A DNA stretch of 64,000 nt from an uncultured Bacteroidota bacterium (lineage in GTDB: Bacteria > Bacteroidota > Ignavibacteria > Kryptoniales > JAKASW01), in assembly GCA_963790995.1 (NCBI GenBank), contig CAWBQQ010000001.1, positions 2,007,268 to 2,071,267 on the forward strand, given 5' to 3'. The notes under the pieces are model-generated. The model made no database searches and was not told where the DNA came from. It saw nothing but the letters and a program-made list of their open reading frames with translations. How positions within the stretch are numbered: the first letter of the stretch is position 1; every line of letters begins with the position of its first letter. The translations under genes and the position numbers were made by a program. This document shows, piece after piece, positions 22,303 through 62,626 of this stretch.

Positions 22303-22348
22303 CGGTTGAATTTCTTCTTGACTAACGACCGGCTTATCCGCAGAGATA

Positions 22349-25178: not shown

Positions 25179-25191
25179 TTTCTATGCCCAT

Positions 25192-25237
25192 AAAAAACGG
25201 AGCCGCATCCTGAAAGCTATCAGAACGGCGGCCCCGC
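25192..25237 (-). terminator. Intrinsic terminator after pstS (25262-26308)
   Basis: Minus strand: GCGGGGCCGC/GCGGCTCCGT stem extended by GTTCTGA/TCAGGAT, followed by a T run. Confidence 0.8.
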
Positions 25238-25261
25238 ATCCTCTTGCCAAAAATGCTTTTA

Positions 25262-26308
25262 CTACTTTAAAATAGTATCTCCATTGTATTGCACTGTTTT
25301 GAGTTTTTCCACATCAAGCTTCTGAATATTATCCGGAAGTGGAGCATAATCGAGCGCAGTCGAGAATTTCTGCCCTTCGGTAACAGCCCACTTCATAAAC
25401 TCAAGCGTAGCTTTTCCTTTTTCCAGGTCTGTCTGGTTCTTATAGATTAACAGCCAGGTCGCACTGGAGATCGGGTACGAATCTTTTCCCGGGGCATTTG
25501 TGATTGAGAATCGTAAATCTTCCGGAAGCGTCTTTGCGGCGTTTGCCAGAGCTTCTGTGACTCCGGATATCGAGGGGTGAATGAACTCGCCGTCCGCATT
25601 CTTGAGATCCGCGTAAGCAATGTTGTTTTGAAGCGCGTAGATCAACTCAACATATCCAATTGCTCCCGGTGTGCGCGTGACCTGTCCCGCCACTCCTTCG
25701 TTGCCTTTGCCGCCGATGCCGACCGGCCAATTCAAACTGGTTGACTTTCCGACTTTGTCTTTCCACTCGGGACTTATCTTCGAGAGATAGTCGGAGAATA
25801 TATACGTCGTTCCGCTTCCGTCTGCGCGATGCACTACGATGATCTGTGCATTGGGAAGATCGACGTTGGGATTGAGCTGTTTTATGGTCTCATCGTTCCA
25901 CATCGTTATCTTGCCTGAGTAAATACTTGCGATTGTTTCTCCGTCGAATTTTAATGTCTCCGTCACGCCGGGTATGTTGTAAGCAATAACGACTGCGCCG
26001 AGAGTTTCGGGAACGTGAATTAGCGGCCCGTGTGCTGAATCCGCCAAGCGCATCTGCTCGTCTGTCAACGGGGCATCGCTTGCTCCCCAATTGACAGTCC
26101 CCGCGATCATTTGCTTAATTCCGCCGCCGCTTCCGATGGATTGATAGTTGACCTGAACGTCCGGTTTGAGATTATGATATTCATTGGACCACTTTGATAT
26201 TAACGGGTACGGAAAAGTCGCTCCGGCTCCGTTGATGATTGTTTGCGCGTACGTCATTGACATTGACACTGCAATTATCGCTAGTGTAGCCGCGACTCGT
26301 TTTAGCAT
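25262..26308 (-). CDS. pstS: Phosphate ABC transporter substrate-binding protein PstS (paralog A)
   Basis: Signal peptide; GAGATFP, YQSIGSGGG, GASDAP, RADGSGTT, GKGNEGV, YPIS. Confidence 0.97.
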   Translation of the reverse strand: MLKRVAATLAIIAVSMSMTYAQTIINGAGATFPYPLISKWSNEYHNLKPDVQVNYQSIGSGGGIKQMIAGTVNWGASDAPLTDEQMRLADSAHGPLIHVPETLGAVVIAYNIPGVTETLKFDGETIASIYSGKITMWNDETIKQLNPNVDLPNAQIIVVHRADGSGTTYIFSDYLSKISPEWKDKVGKSTSLNWPVGIGGKGNEGVAGQVTRTPGAIGYVELIYALQNNIAYADLKNADGEFIHPSISGVTEALANAAKTLPEDLRFSITNAPGKDSYPISSATWLLIYKNQTDLEKGKATLEFMKWAVTEGQKFSTALDYAPLPDNIQKLDVEKLKTVQYNGDTILK

Positions 26309-26426
26309 AAATTGTCTCCTACTGTTAGTGAAAGTTTAAGATATGAGGTACAATAGGCAAAGCCATTATTAAGATTAAAACGGCTCTGCTTGTGCCCTTA
26401 TGCACGCCTAAATTTAATGAATTGAT

Positions 26427-26475
26427 ATGAAGTGAAGTTTAAGTCTGCGTTAAAGACACGTAAATTTAGGTTGAA
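26427..26475 (-). promoter_or_regulatory. Pho-box-like array upstream of pstS A
   Basis: Plus-strand pentamers ATGAA/TTTAA/GTTAA/GTAAA/TTGAA start at 26427, 26438, 26449, 26460 and 26471 (exact 11-bp period). Confidence 0.6.
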
Positions 26476-26689
26476 AAACGAAGTCGATTTGTTTAGAAGT
26501 GGTAATTTCCCCTGCACGAGTCGAATATCATTTAATTTTAACGAACCTGATGAGAAGCCGAAACGATCTGAGTCGTCAAAAGAAAATCATTACCGTAACA
26601 GAGACAAGCTTAACATACGGCATAGAAATGTACACATACTTCTTTGTGCAACGCAGGAGGCAATTGCAGCACGAAATCTAAATGGGACC

Positions 26690-26887
26690 CTATCCTATCT
26701 TGTTGATTCTTGCTTCGGAAATCTTCCGGTTCATTTCCCTTGACGTGCTGAAGTTTTGCAACTCTCTGACTTTTTGCTCGGCAGCTGCGAAGTCCGACTG
26801 AGTCAGGCCTTGTTTATGAAAATGGTATCTTTCCCAATTGTTGAATATTAACTGGTGCAGTTCTTCAAGGGCTTCGTCGTATGTCAT
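26690..26887 (-). CDS. Small hypothetical protein (65 aa)
   Basis: GAGGAG RBS 7 nt before ATG; helical amphipathic composition; co-oriented between the two pstS genes. Confidence 0.65.
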   Translation of the reverse strand: MTYDEALEELHQLIFNNWERYHFHKQGLTQSDFAAAEQKVRELQNFSTSREMNRKISEARINKIG

Positions 26888-26964
26888 CGCGTGTCTCCTC
26901 TCTCTTGCTCTCTATCACAACCAGTAACTCAATTTGAAAGTTCCCATTTTTAAGTCAGTCTGCC

Positions 26965-27006
26965 AAAAAAAACGGAGTCCATCCCTGATTTGCGGACGGA
27001 CCCCGC
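26965..27006 (-). terminator. Intrinsic terminator after pstS (27039-28082)
   Basis: Minus strand: 13-bp stem GCGGGGTCCGTCC/GGATGGACTCCGT followed by a T run. Confidence 0.85.
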
Positions 27007-27038
27007 ATCCTCTTGCCCAAAATCTGCAAGCAGTGTGC

Positions 27039-28082
27039 TTACATTAAGCTCTTGCCTTGATAGTTTACCTTGCCCAGAAGTTTCAGCTCCATCTCCTGAA
27101 TTGGCTTGGGTATCGGGGCATAGTCCAGGGCAGGTTCCATATCTTGGCCTTTTGTAAGTACCCAGTGAAGAAACTGAACTGTCTCCTTGGCGATGTTGTA
27201 GTCGGTCTGGTTGACATACACGATAAGCCATGTCGCGCTGGAAATTGGGTAGGAAGACTTTCCGGGAGCATTCGTGATGGAGAACCTAAGATCCGCGGGG
27301 ACAATCTTTGCCGCGTTCGCTGCCGCATCGCTGACGCTTTTTATTGTCGGATGGATAAATTCACCGTCGGCGTTCTTCATGGAACCGTAAGCAATGTGGT
27401 TCTGAAGAGCGTAGATCAATGTAATGTATCCGATTGAGTAAGGCGTTTGCTCAAGCTGTCCGGACACTCCTTCATTACCCTTTGCGCCGAGACCCACAGG
27501 CCAGTTCACGCTCGTTCCTTTGCCGACTTTGTCGTTCCACTCCTTGGAAACCTTGCAAAGGTAATCAACGAAGATGTATGTGTCGCCGCTGCCGTCAGCG
27601 CGGTGCACAACGATAATTTCATGGTCGGGGAGATTCACACCGGGATTGAGCTTCTTGAGCACCGGGTCGTTCCACTTTGCAATATTGCCCAGGAAAATAT
27701 TTGCAAGAGCTTCGCCTGTGAATTTCAGCGTTGCCTTGACGCCGGGTATATCATACGAGACCGCTACGGCACCCATTGCTTCAGGAAGGTGAACTACCGC
27801 GCCGTGGGCTTTTTCGCACGCGGCAATCTGCTCGTCATTTAGCGGGGCATCGCTGGCGCCAATTTCAACGGTACCGGAAGTCAGTTGATTGATTCCGCCG
27901 CCGCTTCCGATCGACTGATAGTTTAACTCCACATTAGGGTGCATCTTGTGGTAAGTGTCGGACCACTTTGTAAACATCGGATAAATGAACGTCGATCCTG
28001 CACCGTTAATTATCGTTTGCGCATGTAGAACGGCGGTCGAGACAAAAACTGCCGCCACCACTACTAGTACTTTTCTTAGCAT
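27039..28082 (-). CDS. pstS: Phosphate ABC transporter substrate-binding protein PstS (paralog B)
   Basis: Signal peptide; GAGSTFIYP, YQSIGSGGG, GASDAP, RADGSGDT, AKGNEGV. Confidence 0.97.
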   Translation of the reverse strand: MLRKVLVVVAAVFVSTAVLHAQTIINGAGSTFIYPMFTKWSDTYHKMHPNVELNYQSIGSGGGINQLTSGTVEIGASDAPLNDEQIAACEKAHGAVVHLPEAMGAVAVSYDIPGVKATLKFTGEALANIFLGNIAKWNDPVLKKLNPGVNLPDHEIIVVHRADGSGDTYIFVDYLCKVSKEWNDKVGKGTSVNWPVGLGAKGNEGVSGQLEQTPYSIGYITLIYALQNHIAYGSMKNADGEFIHPTIKSVSDAAANAAKIVPADLRFSITNAPGKSSYPISSATWLIVYVNQTDYNIAKETVQFLHWVLTKGQDMEPALDYAPIPKPIQEMELKLLGKVNYQGKSLM

Positions 28083-28205
28083 CTCTTAACTCCTCATTTA
28101 TTTTGTTTATTGGAACTGGCACTTCTGTTCGGGGCGGCGGGATATGCAACCGGCAATTTTTCAATGCGGCATCAAACCCCGCCGGTAGAAATTTTCAACT
28201 CGTCT

Positions 28206-29219
28206 TTAGAACGAGAAATAGACTGTGCCTCTCAGGGTGATGTCGTTAGCTACCCCACCAATACTATAATGCCTATACTCTATGTTCGGCATTAAGTGGA
28301 CGTTACTTTTAACTGCCCAATCCAGTGCACCGAGAGCGAAATTCTGCACACTGGTTGCTTGGGAAGTATGTGCCGCTGTGTTAGGGTCATAGCTATCGAA
28401 CCGTGCTACCAAGCGAAGATTCTCAACAAGGCCAACCCAGCCGTTTATGCTGATCCCATCCCTTGACAATGTGGTGGAGCCATAATCGTGGTCGATGCCT
28501 TGTGCAAAGCCCTGAACGCCAAGACTAAAGTCGCTGTTAGCATAATTGACTATTATATCGCCGGTCTTTCCATCTTGTTCGAGTGGAAGGAATGCCTGGC
28601 TGAAATAATCCCCATCGAGCAGGATTGTAAGCTCGTTGACGGGTTTGAACTGCAAAAAGAGATATCCTCGTTTCTCTTTATAGTTTGTAGTCGGAGTGGG
28701 TTGGCTGTTGCTGCTGTTATTCCCAATTAATACCCCCCCGGAGAAAGCATCTGAGAATTTTTCGCTGACGCCGACGCCAAGATCTCTGGAGGCGCTGATG
28801 CCGTTATAGTCTTGAATCGTTTTCTCAAGTGAACGGTAACCGAAAATTGATTCAGCCATATTGATGTCAGGAGTCCCCTGAAGTCCGAAAATGGCGTGCC
28901 CGTCGGGTATCAGCGCATTCCAGTCAACATAGGCATCCTTAACCATGACAGAGAGTTTGTTGTTTCCAAGAACTGACGCAGTCGGATCGGATTCCAATCG
29001 GAATCTCGCGGCAAATCCGTCGGCAATGTTGTAATCTGTAGTCAGGTATATTCTCCTATAGTCGAAGCCGTTAACGGTTTTCATAGCTTGGTTGTCGTTC
29101 TGGTAGTTATAGTAATAGTCACCGAACATCAATCCCGAAAACTTCGGCATGTTTTGAGCTGATGCCATTCCTGCCATAAGCAGGACGGCGGCAAGAGTAA
29201 AGAATTTACGCAAATACAC
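28206..29219 (-). CDS. Outer-membrane beta-barrel, probable phosphate-starvation porin
   Basis: AAGGAG RBS and GTG start; signal peptide (ASA-Q); alternating beta strands; C-terminal YFSF; RRIYLT and KDAY motifs; directly upstream of pstS. Confidence 0.8.
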   Translation of the reverse strand: MYLRKFFTLAAVLLMAGMASAQNMPKFSGLMFGDYYYNYQNDNQAMKTVNGFDYRRIYLTTDYNIADGFAARFRLESDPTASVLGNNKLSVMVKDAYVDWNALIPDGHAIFGLQGTPDINMAESIFGYRSLEKTIQDYNGISASRDLGVGVSEKFSDAFSGGVLIGNNSSNSQPTPTTNYKEKRGYLFLQFKPVNELTILLDGDYFSQAFLPLEQDGKTGDIIVNYANSDFSLGVQGFAQGIDHDYGSTTLSRDGISINGWVGLVENLRLVARFDSYDPNTAAHTSQATSVQNFALGALDWAVKSNVHLMPNIEYRHYSIGGVANDITLRGTVYFSF

Positions 29220-29255
29220 GTTTGCTCCTTTTTTTGTTTTAAAAGTAATTTTAAA

Positions 29256-29295
29256 TGTTGACGTGTCTGTTAAGCCAATGTTAAGGATTTGTAAA
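29256..29295 (-). promoter_or_regulatory. Pho-box-like array upstream of the porin-pstS operon
   Basis: Minus-strand TTTACA, TTAACA, TTAACA at 11-bp spacing (plus-strand starts 29290, 29279, 29268), plus TCAACA 12 bp further on. Confidence 0.72.
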
Positions 29296-29390
29296 ACGGA
29301 GTGGATTGTCGCCGCTCGATTATTGAAGGGTTTCACTTTAACAAATTGCCTTTTGCTGTTATTTTAGACTTTCAACCAAGGAGGAGAGTT

Positions 29391-35362: not shown

Positions 35363-36127
35363 ATGAAAACGAGTTTGCTGACTTTGAGTGCCGCGGGGTT
35401 CTGTATCTATTTATCAGGTTGTATGGTTGCGCAGGAAACGCTTTATCGTGCCGATCCTGTATCCAAAGAGACTATCTGGTACTCGGGAGAAGAATATCAA
35501 ACCCAGACCAAGGATAGTCTCACGGTGTCGGTCGCATTTGAGTATGAATTGGGCGGCAGCATGACCTTTTACATGGTGGTCGGCAATCAAGGATCCGGCA
35601 CCGTATTGGTTGCACCGGAGAAAATCTATTATTATGGCACAGATGTGCTGATAGATCATTTCACAAAAGACACAACAATAAAGGTCGATACGGCTTATGC
35701 AATTAATCCTGAGAGCCAGTTGACTGGAATCAACCGACAAATGGCACAAGCAAATGCGGCATACTCCACAAATAACAATATTAATGCTGCATCGGCGCTG
35801 TTGCAGCTTGTGGGAGACGTTGCAACAATCGGTAAGAATAAGACCGGGGAAGAGCAAAAAGAAGAAGAGCAAAACCGCCATGATCTCAAAAAGTCCGAAA
35901 GAGATAACCAGGCTACTTACAGCTCGACAATTGACCAGTTAAGCCAAGAAAAAGATTATTGGTTGAATGCCACGCTGCGGAAAACGACCCTTTTTCCGAA
36001 TACTGCCGTTGCCGGGAAAGTTTGTTTCACGGTGGATTCAAACCTTCAAACGTTCAAGTTGATTGTTCCAATTGATTCTGCTGTGATTGAGTTCGATTTC
36101 AAGCAGATGCCGGTTGCTGACCGGTGA
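35363..36127 (+). CDS. Hypothetical lipoprotein
   Basis: GGAGG RBS; lipobox LSGC; beta-sandwich-like ends with a central coiled-coil segment. Confidence 0.8.
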   Translation: MKTSLLTLSAAGFCIYLSGCMVAQETLYRADPVSKETIWYSGEEYQTQTKDSLTVSVAFEYELGGSMTFYMVVGNQGSGTVLVAPEKIYYYGTDVLIDHFTKDTTIKVDTAYAINPESQLTGINRQMAQANAAYSTNNNINAASALLQLVGDVATIGKNKTGEEQKEEEQNRHDLKKSERDNQATYSSTIDQLSQEKDYWLNATLRKTTLFPNTAVAGKVCFTVDSNLQTFKLIVPIDSAVIEFDFKQMPVADR

Positions 36128-37433
36128 CTTTCTGCGGGAGTTCTTGAAGCCGGCTCGAGATTCCGATCTTCTTTAGAAGTTCGAAGGGCATTTCCCCGCC
36201 GGCAAAAATAAAGACAAACTCGTTGCTGAGTTTCATGTCGCCATCCGGTGTTATAAGGGTTACGTCGTCTTCACGAATTTCTTTTACCTCTGAGTTAAAT
36301 ACCACATTTACTTTCCTATTCGACATTGCTTCCACAATGTGACTTTTGTTCCGTTCCTTGATTCGCGTGAATTCACCTTTGCGATATGAAAGTGTTGTGG
36401 CGTTGTTTTTCTGGATGGATAAACCGATGACGGCTTCAATTGCGGAATCGCCGCCGCCGACAACAAGGATGTGACTGTTGCTATAAGTCGATGTGTCGAT
36501 CAGGCGGTACATAACTTTGGAAAGCTCTTCTCCGGGTACGCCAAGTTTCCGTGGTGTGCCGCGCCTGCCGAGTGCAAGTACCACATTATCGGCAGTCGCT
36601 CGAATCGTAGTGCTCGTAATGGAGAAAAATTCGTTTACCCGTTGTATCTCCTCTACTTTTTCATTTGTTCTTACATCAAGTTTGGCCTTATCAATGATTT
36701 TTTGCCACGTGTCGAGCAGAACTTCTTTCTTTACATCCGTCAATTTCAATTTGCCCCAGATGGGAAGTTCAACCGGAGAAGTCATGACAACTTTTGCCCG
36801 CGGATAATGAAGGATTGTTCCACCGATGTCGCTTTGCTCGAGGACTATGTATTTCAGATTCTTATCTTTGGCGCTAAGGGCTGCAGCAAGTCCGGCCGGT
36901 CCGGCTCCGACAATAGCTACATCATACTCTGCCTGATGAGTGGATGGCTTCTTAGCTATGTACTCGACTGCGGCTCTCGCTTGTGAAACGGCATTTTTTA
37001 TTAATCCAATTCCACCAAGTTCCCCGACTATGAAAACTCCTTTGACATTCGTTTCGAAATTTTCATCGATATCAGGAAGATCAGCGCTTCGTCCGGGTTT
37101 TGCCATCAATAATTGAATTGCGCCGACGGGGCAAGCATCTGCACAGAGTCCATGGCCGATACATTTAGCACCATGGATCAACATTGCTTTTCCTTCGATG
37201 ATGCCGAGCACGTCTTCTTCAGGACATGCTTTCACGCATCCGCCGCAGCCGATGCAATTGATGACATCGATGTGAGGATGAACGGTTGCTCCTTCATGGA
37301 GACCGCTGATCTTTAACTCCTGGAATTTTTTTAGCGCTTTAGCCTCCTTCGCTTTTAGGCGGCGAACGTAGGGAATAACAGTCAGCAAAATCAAGACGAC
37401 GACGATCAGTAATGTAATGGTTGTCTGATTCAT
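36099..37433 (-). CDS. Membrane-anchored ferredoxin-domain / thioredoxin-reductase-like (TrxR-type FNR/YpdA-like) flavoprotein
   Basis: N-terminal TM; CIGCGGCVKACP and CIGHGLCADACP; GAGPAG (FAD), GGGDSA plus YRK (NADPH); lacks the TrxR CxxC. Confidence 0.9.
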   Translation of the reverse strand: MNQTTITLLIVVVLILLTVIPYVRRLKAKEAKALKKFQELKISGLHEGATVHPHIDVINCIGCGGCVKACPEEDVLGIIEGKAMLIHGAKCIGHGLCADACPVGAIQLLMAKPGRSADLPDIDENFETNVKGVFIVGELGGIGLIKNAVSQARAAVEYIAKKPSTHQAEYDVAIVGAGPAGLAAALSAKDKNLKYIVLEQSDIGGTILHYPRAKVVMTSPVELPIWGKLKLTDVKKEVLLDTWQKIIDKAKLDVRTNEKVEEIQRVNEFFSITSTTIRATADNVVLALGRRGTPRKLGVPGEELSKVMYRLIDTSTYSNSHILVVGGGDSAIEAVIGLSIQKNNATTLSYRKGEFTRIKERNKSHIVEAMSNRKVNVVFNSEVKEIREDDVTLITPDGDMKLSNEFVFIFAGGEMPFELLKKIGISSRLQELPQKVTGQQPASA

Positions 37434-37444
37434 TCTGGTTTTTC

Positions 37445-39061
37445 TTAAAATCTAAATCCTATTTCGGCAGACGCATTAATGCTGTTCATGGTCGCATCGA
37501 TGACATCGTCCACTTCCACAGATGAATATATTCTCGATGAAAAATCGTAATTCAGGAATCCTGAAAGTGTATGGGTTACATAGGTCTGTTGCAAGGTCGA
37601 AACAGAAATACTGTAGACATCATAACGGAATGTAATGGAAAGGCGGTCGAAAAACATGCGGTCGATATCGGCAGAGAAATCGTGCCCGTTTGTATATTCT
37701 CCGACAATACCGAGGTACTGCACGCCCGCATTTATGCCTGTGCTAAGAATGTCGCCGGCTCGCGTGGAACCGCCGAGAGTATGTTCATCGCGTGAGAATT
37801 CACTGCTTGTGTTGAGAGTCGCGTTTGCAGATACGGTTATCACATCCGTCAAATGGGCAGTCACGGATGCGCGATAACCCTGCAAAATATTTCTATCGAT
37901 TAAAGAATCCGGGATGTTTTTCATCGACTGGAAGAGGTAAATGTTTCGTGAGGCATCGTAGCCGATGTTGGCAAATAGCCATTCCGCCGGATAATAATTT
38001 GCTGAAAAATATGTATCCGAAAAATTGAGCGTAGATTTTCTAACACCGTTGGAGAGGCTGCTTAAATCAATTTCCGACGTTTCGTAAAGATATAATTTTG
38101 TTCCTAGAGAGATAGAATTTTGGGCGTATAAGAAATTACGGTCAAGATTTCCCCCGACCATTTGCAAGCCGTAGGCGATTGTGCCATCATATTGATGGAA
38201 GAAATCGGAGCCGGAGTGATAGTTCAAGAAGAACGCAGTTCTTGTTCCGCTGAAGCTCAGGGACGAAGGAACATCGGCAGCAGCTCCACCGAGAACTCCT
38301 GCGGTAAAATTATTCACGCGGTAATAAAATTGTGCACCGTCAAAAGTTCCGATCCCTCCGACGAACTGCGACGTCATCCGTCCGATGCCGTACCCCATTG
38401 AAGCGTCCGGCAAATCGCTTACCAGTGAAGCGCGGTAAAGGTTATGTTGGAATCCCGTCGCATTTCCAAAGATAGAGTAGTTGTCTGTTCCATCATAAAG
38501 GCTTTGGTCGTCCAATGAAAGTACCATGCCGGTTCCGAGAACATTTGAAACGTTTACCATCACGATCCCCGCGGGCTGGTTCAGATTGAATTTAGAATCT
38601 TCCGCAGAAATAAAATTATATTGAAGACCTATCCTTCCCGAAAAGACATTCTCGCGAGGTTGCTTTTCTGCAAGCGGAGTAATGTTAAATGCCACCGGCA
38701 TTTGGGTTGTGTCCGTTTCTGTAGAATTGGTTCCGGGTTCGGTTGTTTCGATGGACATGACCACATCATCCCCGGTGGCAATTGTGTCTGATTGTGATAT
38801 TATCCGCAGGGCGCTCGAACTGTCGGCTACGGCAATCACTGCGGCCGTTCCGGCATTTACGTCTTTGTGAAATATTTCTGCCGTGTAGCCAACGGCAACA
38901 CCTTCCAGACGGCCGGCGTTAATGTAAATAACCGTTCCGGAAATATATGAGATGGCAAACTTATCCTTTCTGAAGGCGTTCCAATTCCTATTTCTCGCCT
39001 GTGCCACGACATGCAACGTAAGGAATACAGCAAGAACTAATCCGATCGTTTTCGTCCGCAT
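37445..39061 (-). CDS. Outer-membrane beta-barrel protein (porin partner of the multiheme cytochromes)
   Basis: Signal peptide; small N-terminal beta domain (IYINAG..EGV.VG), T-rich linker, many amphipathic beta strands, C-terminal EIGFRF; start overlaps the cytochrome stop. Confidence 0.85.
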   Translation of the reverse strand: MRTKTIGLVLAVFLTLHVVAQARNRNWNAFRKDKFAISYISGTVIYINAGRLEGVAVGYTAEIFHKDVNAGTAAVIAVADSSSALRIISQSDTIATGDDVVMSIETTEPGTNSTETDTTQMPVAFNITPLAEKQPRENVFSGRIGLQYNFISAEDSKFNLNQPAGIVMVNVSNVLGTGMVLSLDDQSLYDGTDNYSIFGNATGFQHNLYRASLVSDLPDASMGYGIGRMTSQFVGGIGTFDGAQFYYRVNNFTAGVLGGAAADVPSSLSFSGTRTAFFLNYHSGSDFFHQYDGTIAYGLQMVGGNLDRNFLYAQNSISLGTKLYLYETSEIDLSSLSNGVRKSTLNFSDTYFSANYYPAEWLFANIGYDASRNIYLFQSMKNIPDSLIDRNILQGYRASVTAHLTDVITVSANATLNTSSEFSRDEHTLGGSTRAGDILSTGINAGVQYLGIVGEYTNGHDFSADIDRMFFDRLSITFRYDVYSISVSTLQQTYVTHTLSGFLNYDFSSRIYSSVEVDDVIDATMNSINASAEIGFRF

Positions 39062-39888
39062 CATCCTCCTCCGGTTGGATGGCAACGATAACATGCGGAG
39101 CTCTCATAGATGTAGCCCTTAACATTTGCATGTTGAGAATCCATCCGGGATTCCGTATGCTCATGGCAGTTTATGCACGCGAACGTAGAGTAATTGGGCT
39201 GTGCCGCGTGGCAGTCGGTACAGGCGTTCCATACTCCCGGCCTGTGCGTGTCACCTGCGTGGATCGGAAAATATGGGTGGGGAAAAAAAGCGGCGGGCTG
39301 CCAAGTCAAAGCTCTGTGACAGACTGCGCATTCGGTATTGAATCCGGCCGTCATATGGTTTGGGTTTTGAGCTGCGATGTACTCGCTTTGATGGCACGCA
39401 ACACATTCGCTTGGTGTGTCACGATATCGGTTTCCGACGTGACAGCTTAAACACGGCACTGCTTCGTGGGCGCCTCGCGTAGGAAATTGTGTTAAATCAT
39501 GGTCGAAGCTTGCCTGCCATGACATTCCTTCTACCGTATGACACTGCGTGCAGTCGGTACCGAATCCCGCGGCTCGATGGTCGATGGCAATCGCTGCATC
39601 ATAATCTTTCTGATGGCACGAAAAACAATCGCGAGGCGTGTCTGTAAATCTTAATCCTGCATGGCAATCTTTACATGCGACATTTCGATGTTCGCCGTAA
39701 AGTTTAAATCCGGTTTCGGAATGGTCGAACTTCATCGGCGAAGCCAGCTCGGTCCAGCCTTGCGTCGTGTGACAGTCAGTGCATTGCAAATTAATATCAC
39801 CATGAGGAGATGCCTGAGCCAGGCAGTCGGCGTATGCGAGCATTGTTACAACAATAACGAAAATTAATTTTGTGCAATTGTTCATCAT
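39061..39888 (-). CDS. Decaheme c-type cytochrome
   Basis: Signal peptide; 10 CxxCH motifs counted (CTDCH, CKDCH, CFSCH, CTQCH, CLSCH, CVACH, CAVCH, CTDCH, CINCH, CYRCH). Confidence 0.95.
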   Translation of the reverse strand: MMNNCTKLIFVIVVTMLAYADCLAQASPHGDINLQCTDCHTTQGWTELASPMKFDHSETGFKLYGEHRNVACKDCHAGLRFTDTPRDCFSCHQKDYDAAIAIDHRAAGFGTDCTQCHTVEGMSWQASFDHDLTQFPTRGAHEAVPCLSCHVGNRYRDTPSECVACHQSEYIAAQNPNHMTAGFNTECAVCHRALTWQPAAFFPHPYFPIHAGDTHRPGVWNACTDCHAAQPNYSTFACINCHEHTESRMDSQHANVKGYIYESSACYRCHPTGGG

Positions 39889-39890
39889 GT

Positions 39891-41540
39891 TTATCCCGCC
39901 GCCGAATGACAATCGGTGCATTTGTTTCCTAATGGTTTGTACTTTACAGTCTCTTTGCCGTTCATCACAACCGACGCATGACATTTCGAGCAAGGTACAT
40001 CGGCGTGTTTTCCCGTGAGCGCGAAGGACGATTGAGTGTCGTGATTGAAAATGAGCTTATGCCAGCTATCGGCGATGTGGCATCTCGCGCAATCAGTCGA
40101 GCCTTCAAGCTGGAATTGTCCCTGGTGTTCATCGGAATGGCATGACGAGCATGCTGTATCCAATCCAACATATTTTATGGGCAGCCACGGGTCCACCGGC
40201 TTCACGTGGCATTTGCTGCATTCGACTTTCGCGTGTGCTCCACGGAGAGGAAATTTTGTTTTATTGTGAGAAAAATTCGGAAGGCTGGCCCACGAATCCG
40301 TTATGTGGCACGTCTTGCATCCGTTGGTCATCTCTGCTTTGAACTGATCTTTGTGAGTATCGGCGTGGCACGTTATGCATTTAATGGATCCGTTCCAATG
40401 AAATTGCATTGTTGAGGGAGCTTTAACCTTGTTCAGGAGATGACACTCAGAACATGGCACGGCGAGATGCGCCCCATCCAGGACAAATCTTCCTTTTTGA
40501 TGATCGGCGATTGTATAAGTTGCCAGAGTCCAGCCGGCTACAGTGTGGCACGATTCGCATTTTCCTTTGTCCGGTCTGTCGGCAAATTGTCCTGCGTGAC
40601 CATCTGAGTGGCAGTCGGAGCATAACTGAAATCGCACAATGTGGAATCCGAATCCGCCGCTGACATTTCTTTTCCTCGGGTCGCTCTCGTGGCACTGTGC
40701 GCATTTCACGCCGGCATGTTTGCCCAATAGAGGAAAAGAAGTCTTAGAATGGTCGAACTCTGTTTTGCTGATGGTGATAAAGCTTTCGGTCATATGGCAT
40801 GATGAACAGGGCTGCTTGAATTGTCCTTTGTGTGGATCGGCGTGGCAATCAGAGCATGATGAAAATTGCATCTGCGTGAACTTTACGGTCTTATTGTCTC
40901 TCAATTTTTCATCGTGGCATTTGAAACAATTGACGTTTTTATGCTGACCGGTAAGCGGATAGCTGGTTAGGTCATGATTGAAGTTATCTGCGGGATTCCA
41001 ATGGTCTGTGCTATGACATGCTGAACAAGATTGGCTAAATTGTCCTTTATGAATATCTTCGTGACATGACTCGCATTGGGTCGATAATCCTAGAAAAGTT
41101 GTTTCTCTTCTAACGACGGGGAGAATCTTAACATCTTGTGCGGCGATATCATTTGGATTATGGCAGTCGCGGCATTTGATGGTTTTATGCTTGCCATTCA
41201 AAACAAATCCAGTTGTGCCATGATCGAACGATGCGGTGTTGAACCGGATGATTTGATATTTGCGCCCAAGGTGATCAAGATGGCACTCGGTACATGACAC
41301 TGCACTAACTGTCGGATGGTATCCTATGCGCCGTTCAATGCTTGCTTCGATAGCTTTGTGACAGGCAAGACACTTATTATTCGATATTAATTTTTCGACC
41401 GTATGACATTTGGTGCAGTTCTCAATTCCTTCGAGTTGGGCATGTCCTGAATAGAGCGGGCCGGGTGAAATCTGAGCATAAGCACAGGCGGCGATAGAAA
41501 TCTCAAGACACAGAGATAACCAAATTTTTCTATTGACCAA
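39891..41540 (-). CDS. 20-heme c-type cytochrome
   Basis: Signal peptide (AYA-Q); 20 CxxCH motifs counted, arranged in about 90-aa three-heme repeats. Confidence 0.96.
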   Translation of the reverse strand: MVNRKIWLSLCLEISIAACAYAQISPGPLYSGHAQLEGIENCTKCHTVEKLISNNKCLACHKAIEASIERRIGYHPTVSAVSCTECHLDHLGRKYQIIRFNTASFDHGTTGFVLNGKHKTIKCRDCHNPNDIAAQDVKILPVVRRETTFLGLSTQCESCHEDIHKGQFSQSCSACHSTDHWNPADNFNHDLTSYPLTGQHKNVNCFKCHDEKLRDNKTVKFTQMQFSSCSDCHADPHKGQFKQPCSSCHMTESFITISKTEFDHSKTSFPLLGKHAGVKCAQCHESDPRKRNVSGGFGFHIVRFQLCSDCHSDGHAGQFADRPDKGKCESCHTVAGWTLATYTIADHQKGRFVLDGAHLAVPCSECHLLNKVKAPSTMQFHWNGSIKCITCHADTHKDQFKAEMTNGCKTCHITDSWASLPNFSHNKTKFPLRGAHAKVECSKCHVKPVDPWLPIKYVGLDTACSSCHSDEHQGQFQLEGSTDCARCHIADSWHKLIFNHDTQSSFALTGKHADVPCSKCHASVVMNGKETVKYKPLGNKCTDCHSAAG

Positions 41541-41787
41541 TAGCCTCTCCAGAATTTTGTGGCTCTAGCTCCTATTTCGGACCCTCTGCCAAATATGCAA
41601 TGCCAGCTGTTAATCCTACTTGATGTCTGAGTTCACTAAAGAAAAAGCTTTTCAAATGTTCGTATTCTTTAATGCTCTAAGTTTTGACGCGGTAACAGAT
41701 TACTGAAGTGTCGCCCCTTTGCTTGAAAATATCGAGATCTGGACGAGCCATATCCTCTTGATCATGTTTGATAATACAAATTTCTTA

Positions 41788-42678
41788 TCAAAAAATCCAA
41801 GTGTATCCGAAAGTCACTGCCACGCCCACATGTATGATAAGAATTATAAGAACTATCAGAGAGAAGGGAAGGTGGATAACATGCCAGTAATGAAAAACGA
41901 GGCGAATTTTCTCCAGAACGAGGATCCGTTGCTGTAAGACAATTCGGCGTTGAGCCGCGGCGCAGATCTTTTTAACTAAATCGGCTCGGACAGAATGTCT
42001 CTGCAGGATTTTGTGAACTTCATTCCGGTAGTTCCACCTTGAAAAATCTGCTTTAAGAAGATACCAGAAAAGCTTGAAGAAACCTGCTCTTGAATTATCA
42101 ATCTGCAAAACACCGGCTTCGTCTATTTGTTGAAGCAGATCGCTTCCGAGAGAATATTGGGTATTTAAAGATTGTAATAATTGCTGCCGCTTGTCTTCGA
42201 GTTCTTTTACAGTAAGTTCGTGGCCTTCGATATTTTTTGGTATGAATCTATAAAAATATCTGCCGATGAAACCACTGAGAACAACCGCGGTCATGCACCA
42301 GAATCCCGCGCCTGCGATGCCTCCGAACTTGAATGTTGTATGGTACATTATAAGAATCGGGCCGACAAGGCACATGAAGATATGAAAATCGAGATAATCC
42401 CTTATTTTTCCGAAGTGAGCGAGCTTTTTTACACGCTTTCTCGTCGAGTAAACTATTACACCAATAAAAATCATAGCTGTGCCGATAACGCCGTAACCGT
42501 GACTTTCTATTCCTTCTGGTTTCAAACTATCATACCGCGCATACAATGGTCTTTCTTGAAGAGGTGTAAGATAGTATGAATAATTTCTCGCCCAGATTGT
42601 GAGAGCGGTTAAAGTTCCGACTATTATCAGAAAGAAGACAAAGACTTTATGCGGGAGTTCCGCGATGCTTGGTTTCAT
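41788..42678 (-). CDS. Inner-membrane protein with conserved His residues (ferric-reductase/cytochrome b-like)
   Basis: Five or six TM segments; YLDFHIF, MYHTT, SGFIGRY, WHVIHLP, IIHV candidate heme-b ligands. Confidence 0.8.
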   Translation of the reverse strand: MKPSIAELPHKVFVFFLIIVGTLTALTIWARNYSYYLTPLQERPLYARYDSLKPEGIESHGYGVIGTAMIFIGVIVYSTRKRVKKLAHFGKIRDYLDFHIFMCLVGPILIMYHTTFKFGGIAGAGFWCMTAVVLSGFIGRYFYRFIPKNIEGHELTVKELEDKRQQLLQSLNTQYSLGSDLLQQIDEAGVLQIDNSRAGFFKLFWYLLKADFSRWNYRNEVHKILQRHSVRADLVKKICAAAQRRIVLQQRILVLEKIRLVFHYWHVIHLPFSLIVLIILIIHVGVAVTFGYTWIF

Positions 42679-57086: not shown

Positions 57087-58907
57087 TCAAGAAACAACGA
57101 GCTCCTTTTCCTTTTGACCGCCTCCATTTGAATTCCATGCAAACAGTCCGCGCTCTATATAGGAAGTGTGAAGAAGGTGATGAGACATCTTTCCCAACGG
57201 TTCCTCCAGGAAATCTTTGTAAAGAGCTGCGACTTCCGAATTCTCGTGTGACTTACGACTTGGCTTGCCTGCATCCTCCGCGTAAATGGATTCAGCTCGC
57301 TTCTTTCTGATTTCCCAAGTCGTCGGGATCGGCTGGCCGCCGCCGCCGATACACCCGCCGGGACACGTCATGATTTCTATGAACGCGTATGGTGATTCGC
57401 CTTTTTCAATTTGCTCCAACAGTTTGCGTGCGTTCTTCAACGTGTGTGCAACTGCCACTTTCAATCTTCTGCCGTTCATATCAACTTCGGCTTCTTTGAT
57501 CCCTTCCATTCCGCGAACCGCATTGAAATTTATGTTCGCGAGCGGAGCACCGGTAACAACTTCATAGGCAGTTCTGACTGCAGCTTCCATAACTCCGCCG
57601 GTTGCGCCGAAAATCACTGCGGCACCGGTTGACTCGCCTAACGGGCTATCAAACGCTTCATTGGGAAGAGTGGAAAACTGAATGCCGGATTGTTTAAACA
57701 TACGGGCAAGCTCACGCGTCGTCAGTACATAATCGACATCATAAAACTCGTCGTCATTGGACCAGGACTTCTTCTCCTTCCAATATGCGAAGGCATTCTT
57801 CATCTCCGGTCGTTTCGCTTCATATTTTTTTGCGGTGCAGGGCATAATTGAAACCACGACCATCTTCCTCGGATCGATGCCGGTCTTCGCTGCGTAATAA
57901 GTTTTTGCAATCGCACCGAACATTTGCTGCGGCGATTTGCAAGTGGAAAGATGCGCCAAGGAATTAGGGAAGAAATGTTCGGCAAACTTTATCCATCCCG
58001 GTGAACATGAAGTAATCATAGGCAGAACTCCGCCTTCAGTTAGCCGCTTGATTAGCTCGTGTCCCTCCTCCATGATAGTCAGGTCAGCGGCGAACTGGGT
58101 ATCGAAAATCTTGTTGAATCCGAGCCGCCGCAATCCTGCAACCATTTGTCCCGTGACGAGCGCGCCGGCTCCCATTCCCATTGCCTCACCGATTCCGACA
58201 CGAATCGCCGGAGCTGTCTGTACCAGGACAATCCTATCCGGATTCAGAATCTCATCGAAGACTTTGTCAGTATCGTCGCGCTCAACAATTGCACCTGTCG
58301 GACAAACTAACGCGCATTGTCCGCAGTTCGTGCAGGCTACATTTCCAAGTCCTTTATCCAGATAAGTCGATATTCTGCTTCTCGTGCCTCGTCCTGTAAT
58401 ATCAATCGCATAAACCGATTGAATGTTGGCACAAACCGCGACGCATCTGCCGCATAGGATGCACTTGTTCGGATCGCGGACGATTGACGGAGAAGTCATA
58501 TCAAACTCTTCAACTGGCTTGGTCCGAACGAACCTGCTCTCCTTCACGCCGAGATCAGCGGCAATCGTTTGAAGCTCGCAGTTTTGATTGCGCAGGCATG
58601 AAAGGCAGTCTTGAGGGTGATTTGCGAGCACCAGCTCCACATTTGTTTTTCTTGCTTCTCTGATGCGCTGTGAATTAGTTGTAATCTCGATCCCTTCGCG
58701 AACGCAAGACGAGCATGAACGAACAAGCGACCGGGCGCCTTTGACTTCCACAAGACAAACACCGCATGAAGCGTTGTGCGACACACCTTCCAGAAAACAG
58801 AGCGTTGGGATCTTTATGCCCGCTTGCGCGCAGGCATCAAGTATCGTTGTGCCATCATGTGTTCGGAAATCAATCCCGTTAATCTTTATATTTACCAGAT
58901 TTTCCAT
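57087..58907 (-). CDS. hydA: [FeFe]-hydrogenase group A catalytic subunit
   Basis: H-cluster motifs TSCSPGW, MPCTAKKYE, EIMTCPGGCIGGGGQP; N-terminal 2Fe-2S, His-ligated 4Fe-4S and 2x4Fe-4S domains. Confidence 0.98.
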   Translation of the reverse strand: MENLVNIKINGIDFRTHDGTTILDACAQAGIKIPTLCFLEGVSHNASCGVCLVEVKGARSLVRSCSSCVREGIEITTNSQRIREARKTNVELVLANHPQDCLSCLRNQNCELQTIAADLGVKESRFVRTKPVEEFDMTSPSIVRDPNKCILCGRCVAVCANIQSVYAIDITGRGTRSRISTYLDKGLGNVACTNCGQCALVCPTGAIVERDDTDKVFDEILNPDRIVLVQTAPAIRVGIGEAMGMGAGALVTGQMVAGLRRLGFNKIFDTQFAADLTIMEEGHELIKRLTEGGVLPMITSCSPGWIKFAEHFFPNSLAHLSTCKSPQQMFGAIAKTYYAAKTGIDPRKMVVVSIMPCTAKKYEAKRPEMKNAFAYWKEKKSWSNDDEFYDVDYVLTTRELARMFKQSGIQFSTLPNEAFDSPLGESTGAAVIFGATGGVMEAAVRTAYEVVTGAPLANINFNAVRGMEGIKEAEVDMNGRRLKVAVAHTLKNARKLLEQIEKGESPYAFIEIMTCPGGCIGGGGQPIPTTWEIRKKRAESIYAEDAGKPSRKSHENSEVAALYKDFLEEPLGKMSHHLLHTSYIERGLFAWNSNGGGQKEKELVVS

Positions 58908-58925
58908 TAAGATTTTCCTCTGAGA

Positions 58926-61900
58926 TTAGTCTTCTTTGAACGAGCCTTCGGATTGGTCCAGGCATTTGACGTTGCACCGGAGGCAGCGTGCGGCTTCGTC
59001 CAATGCTTCTTCCCCGCTGTACCCTGAAAGAACTTCCTGGAAAGTCATAATTCTTTCCATCACGGGAAGCTTCTTCGGCTCAATTCGTTCGCCCCCTTCC
59101 GGCTCCGGCGGGGCTTCGTTTTTGTATTTGAATTCCCTGAACAACCATTGGAATCTTTTTTCCTTCATCAGTTCGAAGTCGATCGCCTCAGCCGCGTTGC
59201 GCGCGATTCCCATCGCTTCGGAAACAGTCGCTGGTCCGGTTACGGCATCGCCACCGGCATAAACTTTCGGTAAGTTTGTGCGGTAGCTCGGATGCTGTAC
59301 CCTGATCGAACCGTTTTTCCGCGTCTCCAATCCGATTTCCTTTGCAGGCTCGAAATCAACTTTTTCGCCGACCGCAAGTATTATAGTCTGGCATTCGACA
59401 AATGCTTTTTCGCCGGTTTCCACCGGTCTTTTCCTTCCCGAGTTGTCGAGCCCGTCGAATCGCATTTTACGAATTTCGAGTCCCTTCACTTTTCCTCTCG
59501 CATCACCCACGATATTGTTAGGAGCGGACATGAACAAAAATTTTATATTTTCGTCCATAGCATCTTTTATTTCGTGTTCATTCGCGGGCATCTCGTCCCT
59601 GTCGCGGCGATAGACAACCGTCACTTCAGCGCCAAGCCGCAGGCATGAGCGCGCGGCATCAATTGCGACATTGCCGGCGCCGACGATTACCACCTTGTCC
59701 CCAATGGCAGGCTTTCTTCCCATCGACAATTTCTCGAGGAACTCGTAGCCTTCGTAAACACCGATGAGATCTTTGCCGGCAATTTTGAGGGTAATATCCT
59801 TTTGAGCGCCGACTGCGATAAAGACCGCATCGTTCTGTTTTTGAATTTGCTTGAAAGATATATCATTGCTGATGCTCGTATTGAACACGAACTTGACGCC
59901 GAGCCTCTTGAACAACTCGAGCTCCTTATGAAGTTCTTCCTTCGGCAGGCAATATGCAGGTATGCCGTACTGTAGAATCCCTCCCGCCTTGGCATGGCTG
60001 TCATATACTGTGACATCATGTCCGAGTCTTACGAGATAATACGCTGCGGTCAATCCTGCCGGGCCAGCTCCGATAATCGCGATCTTCTTTCCGGTTGGCG
60101 AGAGTTTTTCTTTGATCAGTCTCTGATATATAGCTTTTTCCCGTCCCATCTTATACATCGTGTCGGCAAGGTAACGATGAATTTCACCCTGCGAAACAGG
60201 ATCGTCGATCATGTCCCTTCGGCATCGGATCTGGCAGTGGAAGTAACATATCCTGCCGACTGTACCGGGAAGCGGGTTGTCTCGCAACGTCAGTTCGAAG
60301 GCTTCTTCTATTCTGCGTTCTTTCAAGAGCTGTAAATATCCCGGAATGTTCATATGGAGCGGACAACTGTTCTCACACAATGCGACGAACAAGCTTTCGC
60401 ACACTCCGGCTTTACATCGTTTTTGAATTATATGCCTTTCGTACTCGTCACGGAAATATCTAAGCGTGCTCAATACGGGGTTAGCGCTTGTCTGTCCGAG
60501 TCCACACAATGAAGAATCCCGGATTACGTACGCCAAACGCTCCAGCATGTCTAGATCCTCCATCGTTGCTTCGCCGCCTGTAATCTTATTCAAGATTGCA
60601 AGCGCCTGGGCGAGTCCTTCCCGGCATGGCGTGCATTTTCCGCACGATTCATTATGAGTAACTTCGACGAAATATCTTGCGACATCCACCATGCAATTGT
60701 CCTGGTCCATAACCACCATTCCACCGGATCCCATGATTGTGCCGAGCTTCGTGAGCGATTCGTAATCGACAGGCGTATCAAAATGCTCCACCGGTATGCA
60801 TCCGCCGGATGGGCCGCCGGTCTGGACGGCACGAATTCTTTTCTTGGTTCCCGTGCCTTCTCCCATTTGGTAAATGATATTCTCCAGAGGTGTGCCCAGC
60901 GGCAATTCGACAAGTCCGGTATTTTTTATTTTGCCGACAAGCGAAAATACCTTTGTGCCTGTGCTATTTTGAATTCCGAACTTTGCAAATTCATCGCCGC
61001 CTATTGTCACGATCAGCGGAATATTGAACCACGTTTCCACATTATTGATGTTTGTCGGTTTTCCCCATAGCCCCTTTTGTGCAGGGTATGGTGGACGCGG
61101 GATCGGGCGGCCGGCTCTGCCTTCTATAGAGGCGATGAGTGCAGTCTCTTCACCGCACACGAATGCGCCGGCACCTTCTACGTGGCTGAGGTCGAAGCTA
61201 AACGAAGATCCGAAAATATTATGCCCCATCAATCCGCACTCTCGAGCGGAGGCGACTGCTTTCTTAAACCGTTCCACCGCAAGCGGATATTCTGCTCGCA
61301 CATACATCACTCCTTCGGGTGCGCCCATCACATATGCTCCAATCAACATCCCCTCGATCAACGCCTGTGGATCGCTTTCGATTTCATTCCGATTCATATA
61401 AGCACCCGGGTCGCCTTCGTCAGCATTGCAAATAATATATTTCCTGTCAGACTCGGCCTTTTTCATCATCTCCCATTTGATGCCGGTCGGAAACCCTGCT
61501 CCACCTCGCCCGCGCAATTTCGATTTCTTGATTTCATCCAGCACTGAATCCGGCGTCATCATAGTCAGTGCTTTCATCAGCGCACTGTAGCCTCCGACAG
61601 CTACGTATTCTTCAATATCTTCCGGGTTGATTAATCCTGCTTCACGCAGAACGATCTTCTTCTGACCTTTGAAGAATGGAATCTCGTTCCAGAATGGAAC
61701 TTCATTTAGCCCGGTTCCGTATTCGATGCCCGACGTAAAAAAATTCCATTTCTCGATTTTGCACAGCGCCTTTTTAATTGGCATTACCCCGTTGGAGAGG
61801 CTATCGACAATCTTCTCGGCATCCTTCGGTACGACTTTGTGCAAAATGACGAGCGGCATTCCCGGCAAGTAACAGTTGACAAGCGGCTCTTCGGAACAAA

Positions 61901-62102
61901 AGCCAAAGCAGCCGGTGATTGACAGGTCTATTTTTGCTCGTTTCGCCTTGATGGCTTTTTGCAGACTTTCGTACACACCTTTTGCGCCGTTGCCGCTTCC
62001 GCAAGTCCCCATTCCGACGGAAATCTTTGGGGTATCAGGAAGCAGTTTCTTCAGCCCGCTTTTCCTGATCGCTTCTAATGATTCGGCATCAAGAATCTTC
62101 AT
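58926..62102 (-). CDS. hydB: HydB/NuoF-like FMN/NADH subunit fused to a GltD/NfnB-like FAD/NADPH oxidoreductase
   Basis: Thioredoxin-like 2Fe-2S N-terminus; GRGGAGFP, CNADEGDPGA, FVCGEETAL, ESCGKCTPCREG; then CENSCP, GRICYFHCQIRCRR, GAGPAG, GAGNVAID, YRR, GGDA, EAARCLRC. Confidence 0.93.
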   Translation of the reverse strand: MKILDAESLEAIRKSGLKKLLPDTPKISVGMGTCGSGNGAKGVYESLQKAIKAKRAKIDLSITGCFGFCSEEPLVNCYLPGMPLVILHKVVPKDAEKIVDSLSNGVMPIKKALCKIEKWNFFTSGIEYGTGLNEVPFWNEIPFFKGQKKIVLREAGLINPEDIEEYVAVGGYSALMKALTMMTPDSVLDEIKKSKLRGRGGAGFPTGIKWEMMKKAESDRKYIICNADEGDPGAYMNRNEIESDPQALIEGMLIGAYVMGAPEGVMYVRAEYPLAVERFKKAVASARECGLMGHNIFGSSFSFDLSHVEGAGAFVCGEETALIASIEGRAGRPIPRPPYPAQKGLWGKPTNINNVETWFNIPLIVTIGGDEFAKFGIQNSTGTKVFSLVGKIKNTGLVELPLGTPLENIIYQMGEGTGTKKRIRAVQTGGPSGGCIPVEHFDTPVDYESLTKLGTIMGSGGMVVMDQDNCMVDVARYFVEVTHNESCGKCTPCREGLAQALAILNKITGGEATMEDLDMLERLAYVIRDSSLCGLGQTSANPVLSTLRYFRDEYERHIIQKRCKAGVCESLFVALCENSCPLHMNIPGYLQLLKERRIEEAFELTLRDNPLPGTVGRICYFHCQIRCRRDMIDDPVSQGEIHRYLADTMYKMGREKAIYQRLIKEKLSPTGKKIAIIGAGPAGLTAAYYLVRLGHDVTVYDSHAKAGGILQYGIPAYCLPKEELHKELELFKRLGVKFVFNTSISNDISFKQIQKQNDAVFIAVGAQKDITLKIAGKDLIGVYEGYEFLEKLSMGRKPAIGDKVVIVGAGNVAIDAARSCLRLGAEVTVVYRRDRDEMPANEHEIKDAMDENIKFLFMSAPNNIVGDARGKVKGLEIRKMRFDGLDNSGRKRPVETGEKAFVECQTIILAVGEKVDFEPAKEIGLETRKNGSIRVQHPSYRTNLPKVYAGGDAVTGPATVSEAMGIARNAAEAIDFELMKEKRFQWLFREFKYKNEAPPEPEGGERIEPKKLPVMERIMTFQEVLSGYSGEEALDEAARCLRCNVKCLDQSEGSFKED

Positions 62103-62626
62103 TGCCTTTTCCTCCCTTTTGAAATCTTGTCTAGAATCTTTTTTACTTTGTCAGTCGTCACATTGCTGTAAATGACTTCGTCGACCGAAACGACCGGTGC
62201 CAGCGCGCACTGTCCGAAACATGCTACTGTAGATACAGTGAACTTGTTGTCGGGCGTAGTGAAAAAAGATTCGCTTGCTTTGGGGCCGGCAGCGCCGCCG
62301 TTTCTCAGAACGAGTCCGAGATCGTCCAGCAGCCCCTTCGAACCTTTAGTGTGACAGGCTGTACCACGACATACGGTGATGGTATGCTCTCCTTGAGGTT
62401 TGAGATTGAAGAAGGAATAAAAAGTGACGACGTTGTAGATCCTGGAAAGTGGAACCCCCGTCTTAACGGCCACCTGGTTCAAAGCATCTTCGGAAAGATA
62501 CTTATGCTCGTTGAGAAGCTGTGTCTCTTCCAGAATGCTCAACAATTCCCCATGATGACCTTTATGTCTCGCAACAACCGAATCGATGTCTTGTATTTCA
62601 CGCGCCATTGTTTGTGGTTCGCTCAT
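62099..62626 (-). CDS. hydC: HydC/NuoE-like 2Fe-2S subunit
   Basis: VVTFYSFF, CRGTACH, CFGQC; AAGGAG RBS before ATG at 62626. Confidence 0.95.
   Translation of the reverse strand: MSEPQTMAREIQDIDSVVARHKGHHGELLSILEETQLLNEHKYLSEDALNQVAVKTGVPLSRIYNVVTFYSFFNLKPQGEHTITVCRGTACHTKGSKGLLDDLGLVLRNGGAAGPKASESFFTTPDNKFTVSTVACFGQCALAPVVSVDEVIYSNVTTDKVKKILDKISKGRKRQ

Follow-up and report, generated by a model that had tools for sequence, protein, structure and literature searches.

How does an [FeFe]-hydrogenase handle its electrons when a GltD-type module stands in for its ferredoxin-docking domain, and where does its di-iron cofactor come from in a genome without the maturases HydE, HydF and HydG? Both questions are raised by an intact three-gene operon (57087–62626, minus strand) found among the open reading frames of a 64,000-nucleotide stretch, here called the window, from an uncultured Bacteroidota bacterium (Ignavibacteria; Kryptoniales; JAKASW01; assembly GCA_963790995.1, contig CAWBQQ010000001.1, positions 2,007,268–2,071,267). 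The operon encodes HydC, a HydB–GltD fusion and the catalytic subunit HydA. The fusion is genuine, and the clade of this bacterium lacks the maturases; a TonB-dependent receptor accompanies HydA in maturase-less relatives, suggesting that the cofactor may be imported. The features of the operon are as follows.

62099–62626, minus strand: hydC, a NuoE-like subunit of 175 residues (Pfam 2Fe-2S_thioredx), its ATG behind a ribosome-binding site
58926–62102, minus strand: the HydB–GltD fusion gene, 1058 residues, recognized from its Pfam domains
60399–62102, minus strand: the HydB/NuoF half of the fusion (residues 1–568), placed by alignment and by Foldseek comparison with solved BfuB chains
58926–60398, minus strand: the GltD/NfnA-type half (residues 569–1058), placed by domains and alignment, in the position of the B3/B4 ferredoxin-docking domain
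59949–59951, minus strand: codon 718 of the fusion gene, Cys in the assembly and Arg in homologues
57087–58907, minus strand: hydA, the group A3 catalytic subunit, 606 residues (NF040763, group A6, and TIGR02512 both over cut-off)

A preliminary description of this DNA had proposed a complete NuoF/HydB continuing into a GltD-type Fe–S/flavin adenine dinucleotide (FAD) domain, and the Pfam assignments bear it out: Complex1_51K (191–362), SLBB (386–434), NADH_4Fe-4S (473–557), Fer4_20 (565–652) and Pyr_redox_2 (673–965). Its proposed check for the same architecture beside hydA also gave a clear answer—the subunit is fused in all 80 fetched genome loci, adjoined by hydC in 75 and by hydA in 73, on records labelled Kryptoniota, Ignavibacteria, Bacteroidota, Acidobacteriota and Spirochaetota. 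At least 120 fusion homologues are present among the matches listed, most of them full-length at 62–85% identity; the closest relatives, from the genome loci, are 94% identical, one labelled Candidatus Kryptoniota. A contig from an independent soil run (X3) covers 60138–60825 and crosses the junction with zero differences. Full-length homologues, the 80 loci and this contig together rule out an assembly artefact at the junction. A single residue needed separate attention: codon 718 reads Cys in the assembly, but a flavin-contacting Arg (the equivalent of Pf NfnL Arg201) occupies this position in 71 of 71 homologues and in contigs of three of four independent runs, the fourth having no coverage there. 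Because homologues and runs alike read Arg, Cys718 stems from an error in the assembly or from strain variation, and a FAD site inactivated through it is ruled out as a property of the population.

The hydrogenase parts of the complex look complete. By sequence comparison, HydA has every N-terminal Fe–S ligand, the three H-cluster motifs and the proton-transfer residues; it matches 7q4v_A (E = 1.7e-189), and its L1 motif takes the Ser form, as in A. woodii HydA1. The presence of such a HydA, encoded with NuoF- and NuoE-like subunits, agrees with group A3, from which this host departs in its lack of HydE, HydF and HydG. HydC contributes four Cys for the mobile [2Fe–2S] C1 cluster, invariant in 75 of 75 homologues. 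The NuoF half aligns by sequence with solved BfuB chains, and its AlphaFold model superimposes on 9bov_B with a root mean square deviation of 1.7 Å (Foldseek). It keeps the flavin mononucleotide (FMN)/NADH site and the ligands of the [4Fe–4S] B1 cluster, and a Zn (B2) site composed of Cys470, His557, Cys563 and Cys568 is conserved in 71 of 71 homologues. In Tma numbering, bifurcating β-subunits are described as carrying Ala/Glu and Met at 232/234, Phe at 367 and a glycine-rich SLBB loop, markers that non-bifurcating enzymes are without (PMC7311640). The fusion keeps Ala234, Met236, Phe314 and the SLBB loop (429–433), without exception in 71 homologues at the positions printed; the invariance of Phe314, mapped through Tsi NfnB Phe281, derives from a 90-row alignment (A1). 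There is also an N-terminal three-Cys site as in Csac NfnB, where Zn has been modelled (PMC11829005), making Zn the likely occupant here by analogy.

The fusion departs from other BfuB chains beyond its NuoF half. Pfam finds no C-terminal 2×[4Fe–4S] domain (B3/B4, IPR017896) in the fusion subunit, and the tail beyond Cys1043 is short; the first ligand of a distal cluster lies eight residues past the last Zn ligand, where B3 normally begins. This distal cluster has Cys576, Cys627, Cys1040 and Cys1043 as ligands, the C-terminal pair completing it, and the proximal cluster has Cys580, Cys619, Cys623 and His642, the last present in 90 of 90 rows of A1. Elsewhere, the fourth proximal ligand is Lys for NfnA and Glu for NfnL (PMC11829005, PMC12018979). 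A FAD site and an NADP-type motif (831–833) follow. The best sequence match is of the NfnA/StnC type (9bov_A, E = 3e-108), with the same circular permutation, and there is homology to NfnL as well (5jca_L, E = 6e-99). Because the module is of this permuted type, its FAD would act as an end-of-chain electron-transfer flavin and is less likely to bifurcate in its own right. The GltD/NfnB-like module of the preliminary description stands as regards its NADP-type motif and FAD site, and loses ground as regards bifurcation. Its suggested comparison with the bifurcating-FAD residues of NfnB came out mixed: the flavin Arg is kept in the population, but the ligand is His rather than Glu and the Cys spacing is NfnA/StnC-like.

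More distant fusions (44% identity) carry Lys at position 642 and are paired with HdrA/QmoC or NuoG-like subunits; the GltD module is therefore reusable across partner subunits. Two such NuoF–GltD loci, L269 (G004:C6) and L270 (G046:C1), have no hydA beside them; their partners are QmoC-like, HdrA–NuoE and HdrA-rich genes, or a NuoG-like subunit with a 527-residue unknown protein.

Because the bifurcation signature is kept, yet the ferredoxin-docking clusters are gone, we give about an even chance to a complex that couples H2 to both NADH and NADPH without ferredoxin. Other Bfu enzymes have a mobile C1 cluster on subunit C that moves between FMN and B3, and in Tsi NfnABC the B4 cluster is described as required for ferredoxin-linked bifurcation (PMC12018979). 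Here, the FMN–B1–C1 centre would split or merge electrons as in those enzymes, and the mobile C1 cluster of HydC would deliver the low-potential electron to the GltD module at its distal cluster, from which it would travel through the His-ligated proximal cluster and FAD to NADP(H). In the simplest reading, NADP(H) would take the place of ferredoxin, giving a net reaction of 2 H2 + NAD+ + NADP+ ⇌ NADH + NADPH + 2 H+. The computed equilibrium of this coupled reaction lies at about 95–140 Pa H2; the corresponding pressures are 3 Pa with NADH as sole carrier and 15 kPa when NADH and ferredoxin are combined (E′ of −280 and −370/−380 mV, near the values given in PMC9304861). A bias towards H2 uptake has been suggested for hydrogenases with the Ser-type L1 motif (PMC3362086), so the reaction may run towards either H2 uptake or production. 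Two points count against the coupled path. The gap between NADH and NADPH, about 100 mV, is small, and tight coupling may be unnecessary; in addition, the AlphaFold model does not place the contact between C1 and the distal cluster, as the predicted local distance difference test score falls below 50 at 574–578, 626–632 and 1042–1058, the junction clusters.

That small driving-force gap would also suit an active hydrogenase whose two diaphorase ends are uncoupled, reacting with NADH or NADPH separately and behaving as a leaky soluble transhydrogenase, and B3/B4 are likewise described as missing from the non-bifurcating enzymes of S. wolfei and S. aciditrophicus (PMC7311640). We consider it unlikely: neither the Zn site nor any of the residue-level markers of bifurcation varies here, unlike in the non-bifurcating enzymes. 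It is more improbable still that ferredoxin remains a substrate, docking at the distal cluster in the manner of NfnSL, or that the FAD is a second bifurcation centre (Zheng and Huang 2024). The homology of the GltD half to NfnL, the flavin Arg, and a genome with two small ferredoxin-like reading frames and an NfnAB operon would suit such a scheme; the NfnA/StnC topology and Cys spacing, in which FAD does not bifurcate, the His in place of the Glu of NfnL and the absence of an NfnS-like gene from the operon at all 80 loci speak against it. Coupling of H2, NADH and NADPH, put forward in the preliminary description as a hydrogen-linked transhydrogenase, thus remains the likeliest reading of the anatomy.

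The wider genome provides a context for NADPH. Besides the NfnAB operon and the ferredoxin-like reading frames it encodes GltBD, PntB was not found in it, and the following operon could yield NADPH.

G000:C1:572639-577284 (L141:6640-11285), minus strand: porC, a PRK12771-type GltD/2×[4Fe–4S] subunit, porA and porB, a pyruvate oxidoreductase that may reduce NADP+ directly

Genes of 560–600 residues similar to the PRK12771-type subunit are common in the genus. This gene set—pyruvate oxidoreductase, NfnAB and GltBD with no PntB—would fit a fermentative disposal of NADH and NADPH.

How does the complex relate to known enzymes? The fusion architecture as such is already known from genomes, printed in 2024 as sub-type I BfuABC(D) (Zheng and Huang 2024, PMC11406978). 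That group shares with our operon the replacement of B3/B4 by DPD_II and a FAD/NAD(P) domain, beside hydA and hydC, together with the Ser-form L1, and its trimeric form without BfuD is reported in Spirochaetota and others, as here. The paper proposes a second bifurcating FAD; in the text available, NADP has no occurrences and maturases are not discussed. The present clade differs in its His at the proximal cluster and its lack of hydEFG. As in Bfu enzymes generally, there is a BfuB with FMN domain, SLBB and B1 cluster, a BfuC and a conserved His/Cys B2 site, whereas the C-terminal 2×[4Fe–4S] domain of BfuB is missing; the definition of BfuB by its domain set excludes this architecture (PMC9304861). 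The electron-bifurcating HydABC enzymes from Acetobacterium woodii (7q4v), Thermoanaerobacter kivui (8a6t) and Thermotoga maritima (7p5h) share HydA, HydC, the FMN–B1–C1 centre, the Zn site and the signature residues with our complex, in which B3/B4 are gone and an extra FAD/NADP module and the three-Cys N-terminal site are found. Nfn-Bfu/StnABC (9bov, 9n5u, 8oh5) provides the best structural match to the NuoF half and the best sequence match to the GltD half, with the same permutation; there, subunit A carries the NADP module at the mid-potential input, and Lys is the fourth ligand, whereas here the module belongs to subunit B at the low-potential exit, its ligand is His, and a hydrogenase serves as subunit A. 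NfnAB/NfnSL (4ylf, 5jca) shares the FAD/NADP and two-cluster module and the flavin Arg, but our operon has no small subunit, no Glu-ligated proximal cluster and no N-terminal distal-cluster motif, and its topology is permuted. We found no report of an assayed fusion enzyme, of uptake of an H-cluster precursor or of alternative maturation in a literature search that left most subscription papers outside. The earlier remark that a NuoF–GltD protein paired with an H-cluster subunit lacks characterization therefore agrees with our search, with the architecture itself no longer new.

The second question arises from what the genome does not encode. No hydEFG genes had been noticed in the window, and their absence proves to extend to the whole genome and the whole clade. 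The genome is 96.87% complete in two contigs and has one hydA; no HydG, HydF or HydE scores over the model cut-offs anywhere in it, and tblastn searches of it with real HydG and HydE proteins recover only a radical SAM gene, 24–29% identical. We tested the genomes of 50 of the 80 loci (25 close and 25 spirochaete carriers, for which no completeness values are available). All three maturases are lacking from 32 of 32 close carriers—the 25 tested and seven of the host's own genus—including the single-contig genomes G009 and G012, and the models recover both positive controls; genome incompleteness is thereby ruled out as the cause. Among the 25 spirochaete carriers, of completeness not given, HydG occurs in eight, HydF in nine and HydE in eight, and 16 have none of the three. 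HydA is encoded by 11 of 61 relatives and HydG by none. In a phylum sample of 251 genomes spread evenly, none below 90% completeness, a group A HydA occurs in 27, 13 of these with HydG and 14 without. Maturase loss is not tied to the fused enzyme: the fusion-free genomes G040, G054 and G055 lack maturases too, keep two to four HydA genes and carry the receptor described below. Nor does HydA look decayed. Across 28 close-clade HydA proteins, at a mean identity of 85%, no residue of the di-iron pocket or the proton path varies (gaps in one row at Glu281 and one at 435–443), compared with 58% of columns invariant over the entire domain. The activation of [FeFe]-hydrogenases in organisms that lack HydE, HydF and HydG is described as an open question (PMC11216029).

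One gene tracks this loss closely, a TonB-dependent receptor that in relatives commonly diverges from hydC.

G000:C1:1247635-1249836 (L150:8636-10837), minus strand: the TonB-dependent receptor orthologue of the host genome, outside the window, without an N-terminal extension and without an EamA partner

The receptor is present in 32 of 32 close carriers (in pieces in three of the 25 tested); in 28 of 33 close loci it stands divergent from hydC, and an EamA gene is found in 22. Ten of the 11 HydA carriers among the 61 relatives have it, and none of the other 50. In the phylum sample it occurs in 14 of 14 genomes with HydA and no HydG, in 3 of 13 with both and in 0 of 224 without HydA (14/14 against 3/13, Fisher p = 3e-5, uncorrected for kinship). 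Within families f16 and f22, the counts for HydA carriers are 7 of 7 without HydG and 3 of 10 with it. The profile behind these counts separates 17 orthologues (at least 724 bits) from six distant matches (at most 302), a split also recovered on a quick tree. Of 78 metagenome receptor loci, collected with a profile that favours the close clade, 34 have a hyd gene and none has hydG or hydE, while EamA follows in 53 of the 60 with room downstream. Because the receptor also flanks hydA operons of canonical, non-bifurcating and two-subunit GltD-linked type, it goes with HydA and not with the fusion. At the three loci inspected for it, a Rex gene precedes the receptor. One receptor neighbourhood, L227:1654-7673, encodes a two-subunit hydrogenase composed of HydA and a 713-residue NADH_4Fe-4S/GltD protein without FMN domain; a HydA–histidine kinase fusion follows, and receptor and EamA adjoin.

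Since the genome has no hydE, hydF or hydG, import of the cofactor suggests itself, and a preformed di-iron precursor entering through the TonB-dependent receptor is our preferred reading, at a little short of an even chance. Maturase-bearing neighbours would release a stable [2Fe] precursor, which would cross the outer membrane via the receptor and the inner membrane via the EamA protein, encoded behind the receptor in most relatives, and insert spontaneously into apo-HydA. Synthetic [2Fe]adt in the medium activates apo-HydA in maturase-free E. coli cells (PMC8159234), and because nothing further is needed there, precursor import would be a sufficient mechanism. Salvage in this sense, with HydEFG-less bacteria taking an organometallic precursor from their neighbours through receptor and EamA to switch on hydrogenases like the putative NADH/NADPH-coupling one here, is held with the same near-even reserve; that it holds jointly with the coupled electron path is a tentative proposition.

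Several observations weigh against import. We know of no natural release of an H-cluster precursor. The cargo is unreadable from sequence, as the receptor matches only generic TonB families, below cut-off, and all five NCBIfam models for named TonB families (haem, siderophore, copper, B12) stay below cut-off too. Kin are not independent in the receptor counts. None of the 25 spirochaete carriers, 16 of them maturase-less, has the receptor, and EamA is missing from five of five. G049, with HydA and no HydG, has EamA without the receptor, and the host genome and G021 have the receptor with no EamA orthologue. Finally, in two HydG-bearing genomes EamA is found beside feoA/feoB (L264 in G270, L265 in G266), suggestive of plain iron handling.

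This last observation, together with the receptor-less spirochaetes, would suit maturation inside the cell by an alternative pathway, as proposed for maturase-less archaea and Giardia/Entamoeba, with receptor and EamA supplying iron or a building block. Maturases are reported in only 5 of 130 hydrogenase-bearing archaeal genomes, from which an alternative pathway was inferred (PMC11216029), and 30 of 32 close carriers have HypD. Yet the two transport genes alone recur in the 33 close loci and the 78 metagenome receptor loci, with no biosynthetic candidate among the recurring neighbours; a receptor in 14 of 14 genomes against 3 of 13 is not what plain iron supply would predict; and a route via the NiFe Hyp proteins does not work for G040 or for any of the 16 maturase-less spirochaetes, all without HypD, leaving Hyp unsupported as a general substitute. 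We regard an internal pathway as rather unlikely. The host does have a NiFe enzyme.

G000:C1:1993536-1998698 (L146:6269-11431), minus strand: a NiFe hydrogenase operon, group 3b-like, that includes a cNMP-binding gene and a maturation protease

This operon sits about 9–14 kb before the window, with hypD and hypF elsewhere in the genome. That HydA is never matured, serving as scaffold or electron buffer in an NADPH:NAD+ transhydrogenase while this NiFe enzyme handles H2, would account for the absent maturases, the two nucleotide sites of the fused subunit, the related fusions paired with HdrA/QmoC or NuoG-like subunits and the group 3b enzyme with its Hyp genes, but is very unlikely given the undecayed pocket and proton path in 28 proteins at 85% mean identity and the HydA genes and receptor kept by fusion-free G040, G054 and G055.

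Import has partial parallels. The maturase-less [FeFe]-hydrogenases of archaea and some eukaryotes also combine an intact HydA with no HydEFG (PMC11216029); here, by contrast, the hosts are diderm bacteria and a specific importer gene pair tracks maturase loss. The role envisaged for the receptor resembles that of other outer-membrane proteins that make good a missing cofactor pathway. BtuB, a TonB-dependent receptor, acts in this way in cobalamin salvage and is a distant match to our receptor. Its difference is that our putative cargo is deduced from gene patterns alone, and that the inner-membrane partner would be EamA, not an ABC transporter.

The surroundings of the operon are less informative. 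No shared Rex, FNR or sigma-54 site was found in 27 regions upstream of hydC, and scans for an operon promoter and terminator gave chance-level hits only. Among the matching sequencing runs listed, none was of RNA. Beside the spirochaete operons lies a 317-residue cytidyltransferase-like gene, found with and without maturases. Within the window, a cytochrome conduit is encoded about 15 kb away.

36099–42678, minus strand: a membrane protein, 20-haem and 10-haem cytochromes, a 549-residue unknown protein and an Fe–S/thioredoxin-reductase-like flavoprotein

The idea that the hydrogenase supplies this conduit with NADPH found no backing in five genomes tested, where the two are distributed independently: the conduit flavoprotein is absent from one single-contig carrier, present in one HydA-less genome and hundreds of kb away in two carriers. 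The rest of the window includes a long plus-strand gene run behind rsmH (1–17400), a candidate cell-wall/division cluster, and a phosphate cluster (18542–29336) with ppk, SixA-like, CHAD and Ppx genes, two PstS-like proteins and a porin.

For the phylum, then, HydG is missing from 14 of the 27 HydA-bearing genomes sampled, and one transporter pair marks them, so that maturation becomes a question for experiments on binding and uptake. Should the cargo prove to be an H-cluster precursor, this would be cross-feeding of a carbonyl–cyanide iron cofactor, and engineered cells could use the system to mature hydrogenases. If the electron path is as proposed, the fused enzyme would bifurcate between two pyridine nucleotides without ferredoxin, offering a natural test of the Bfu mechanism.

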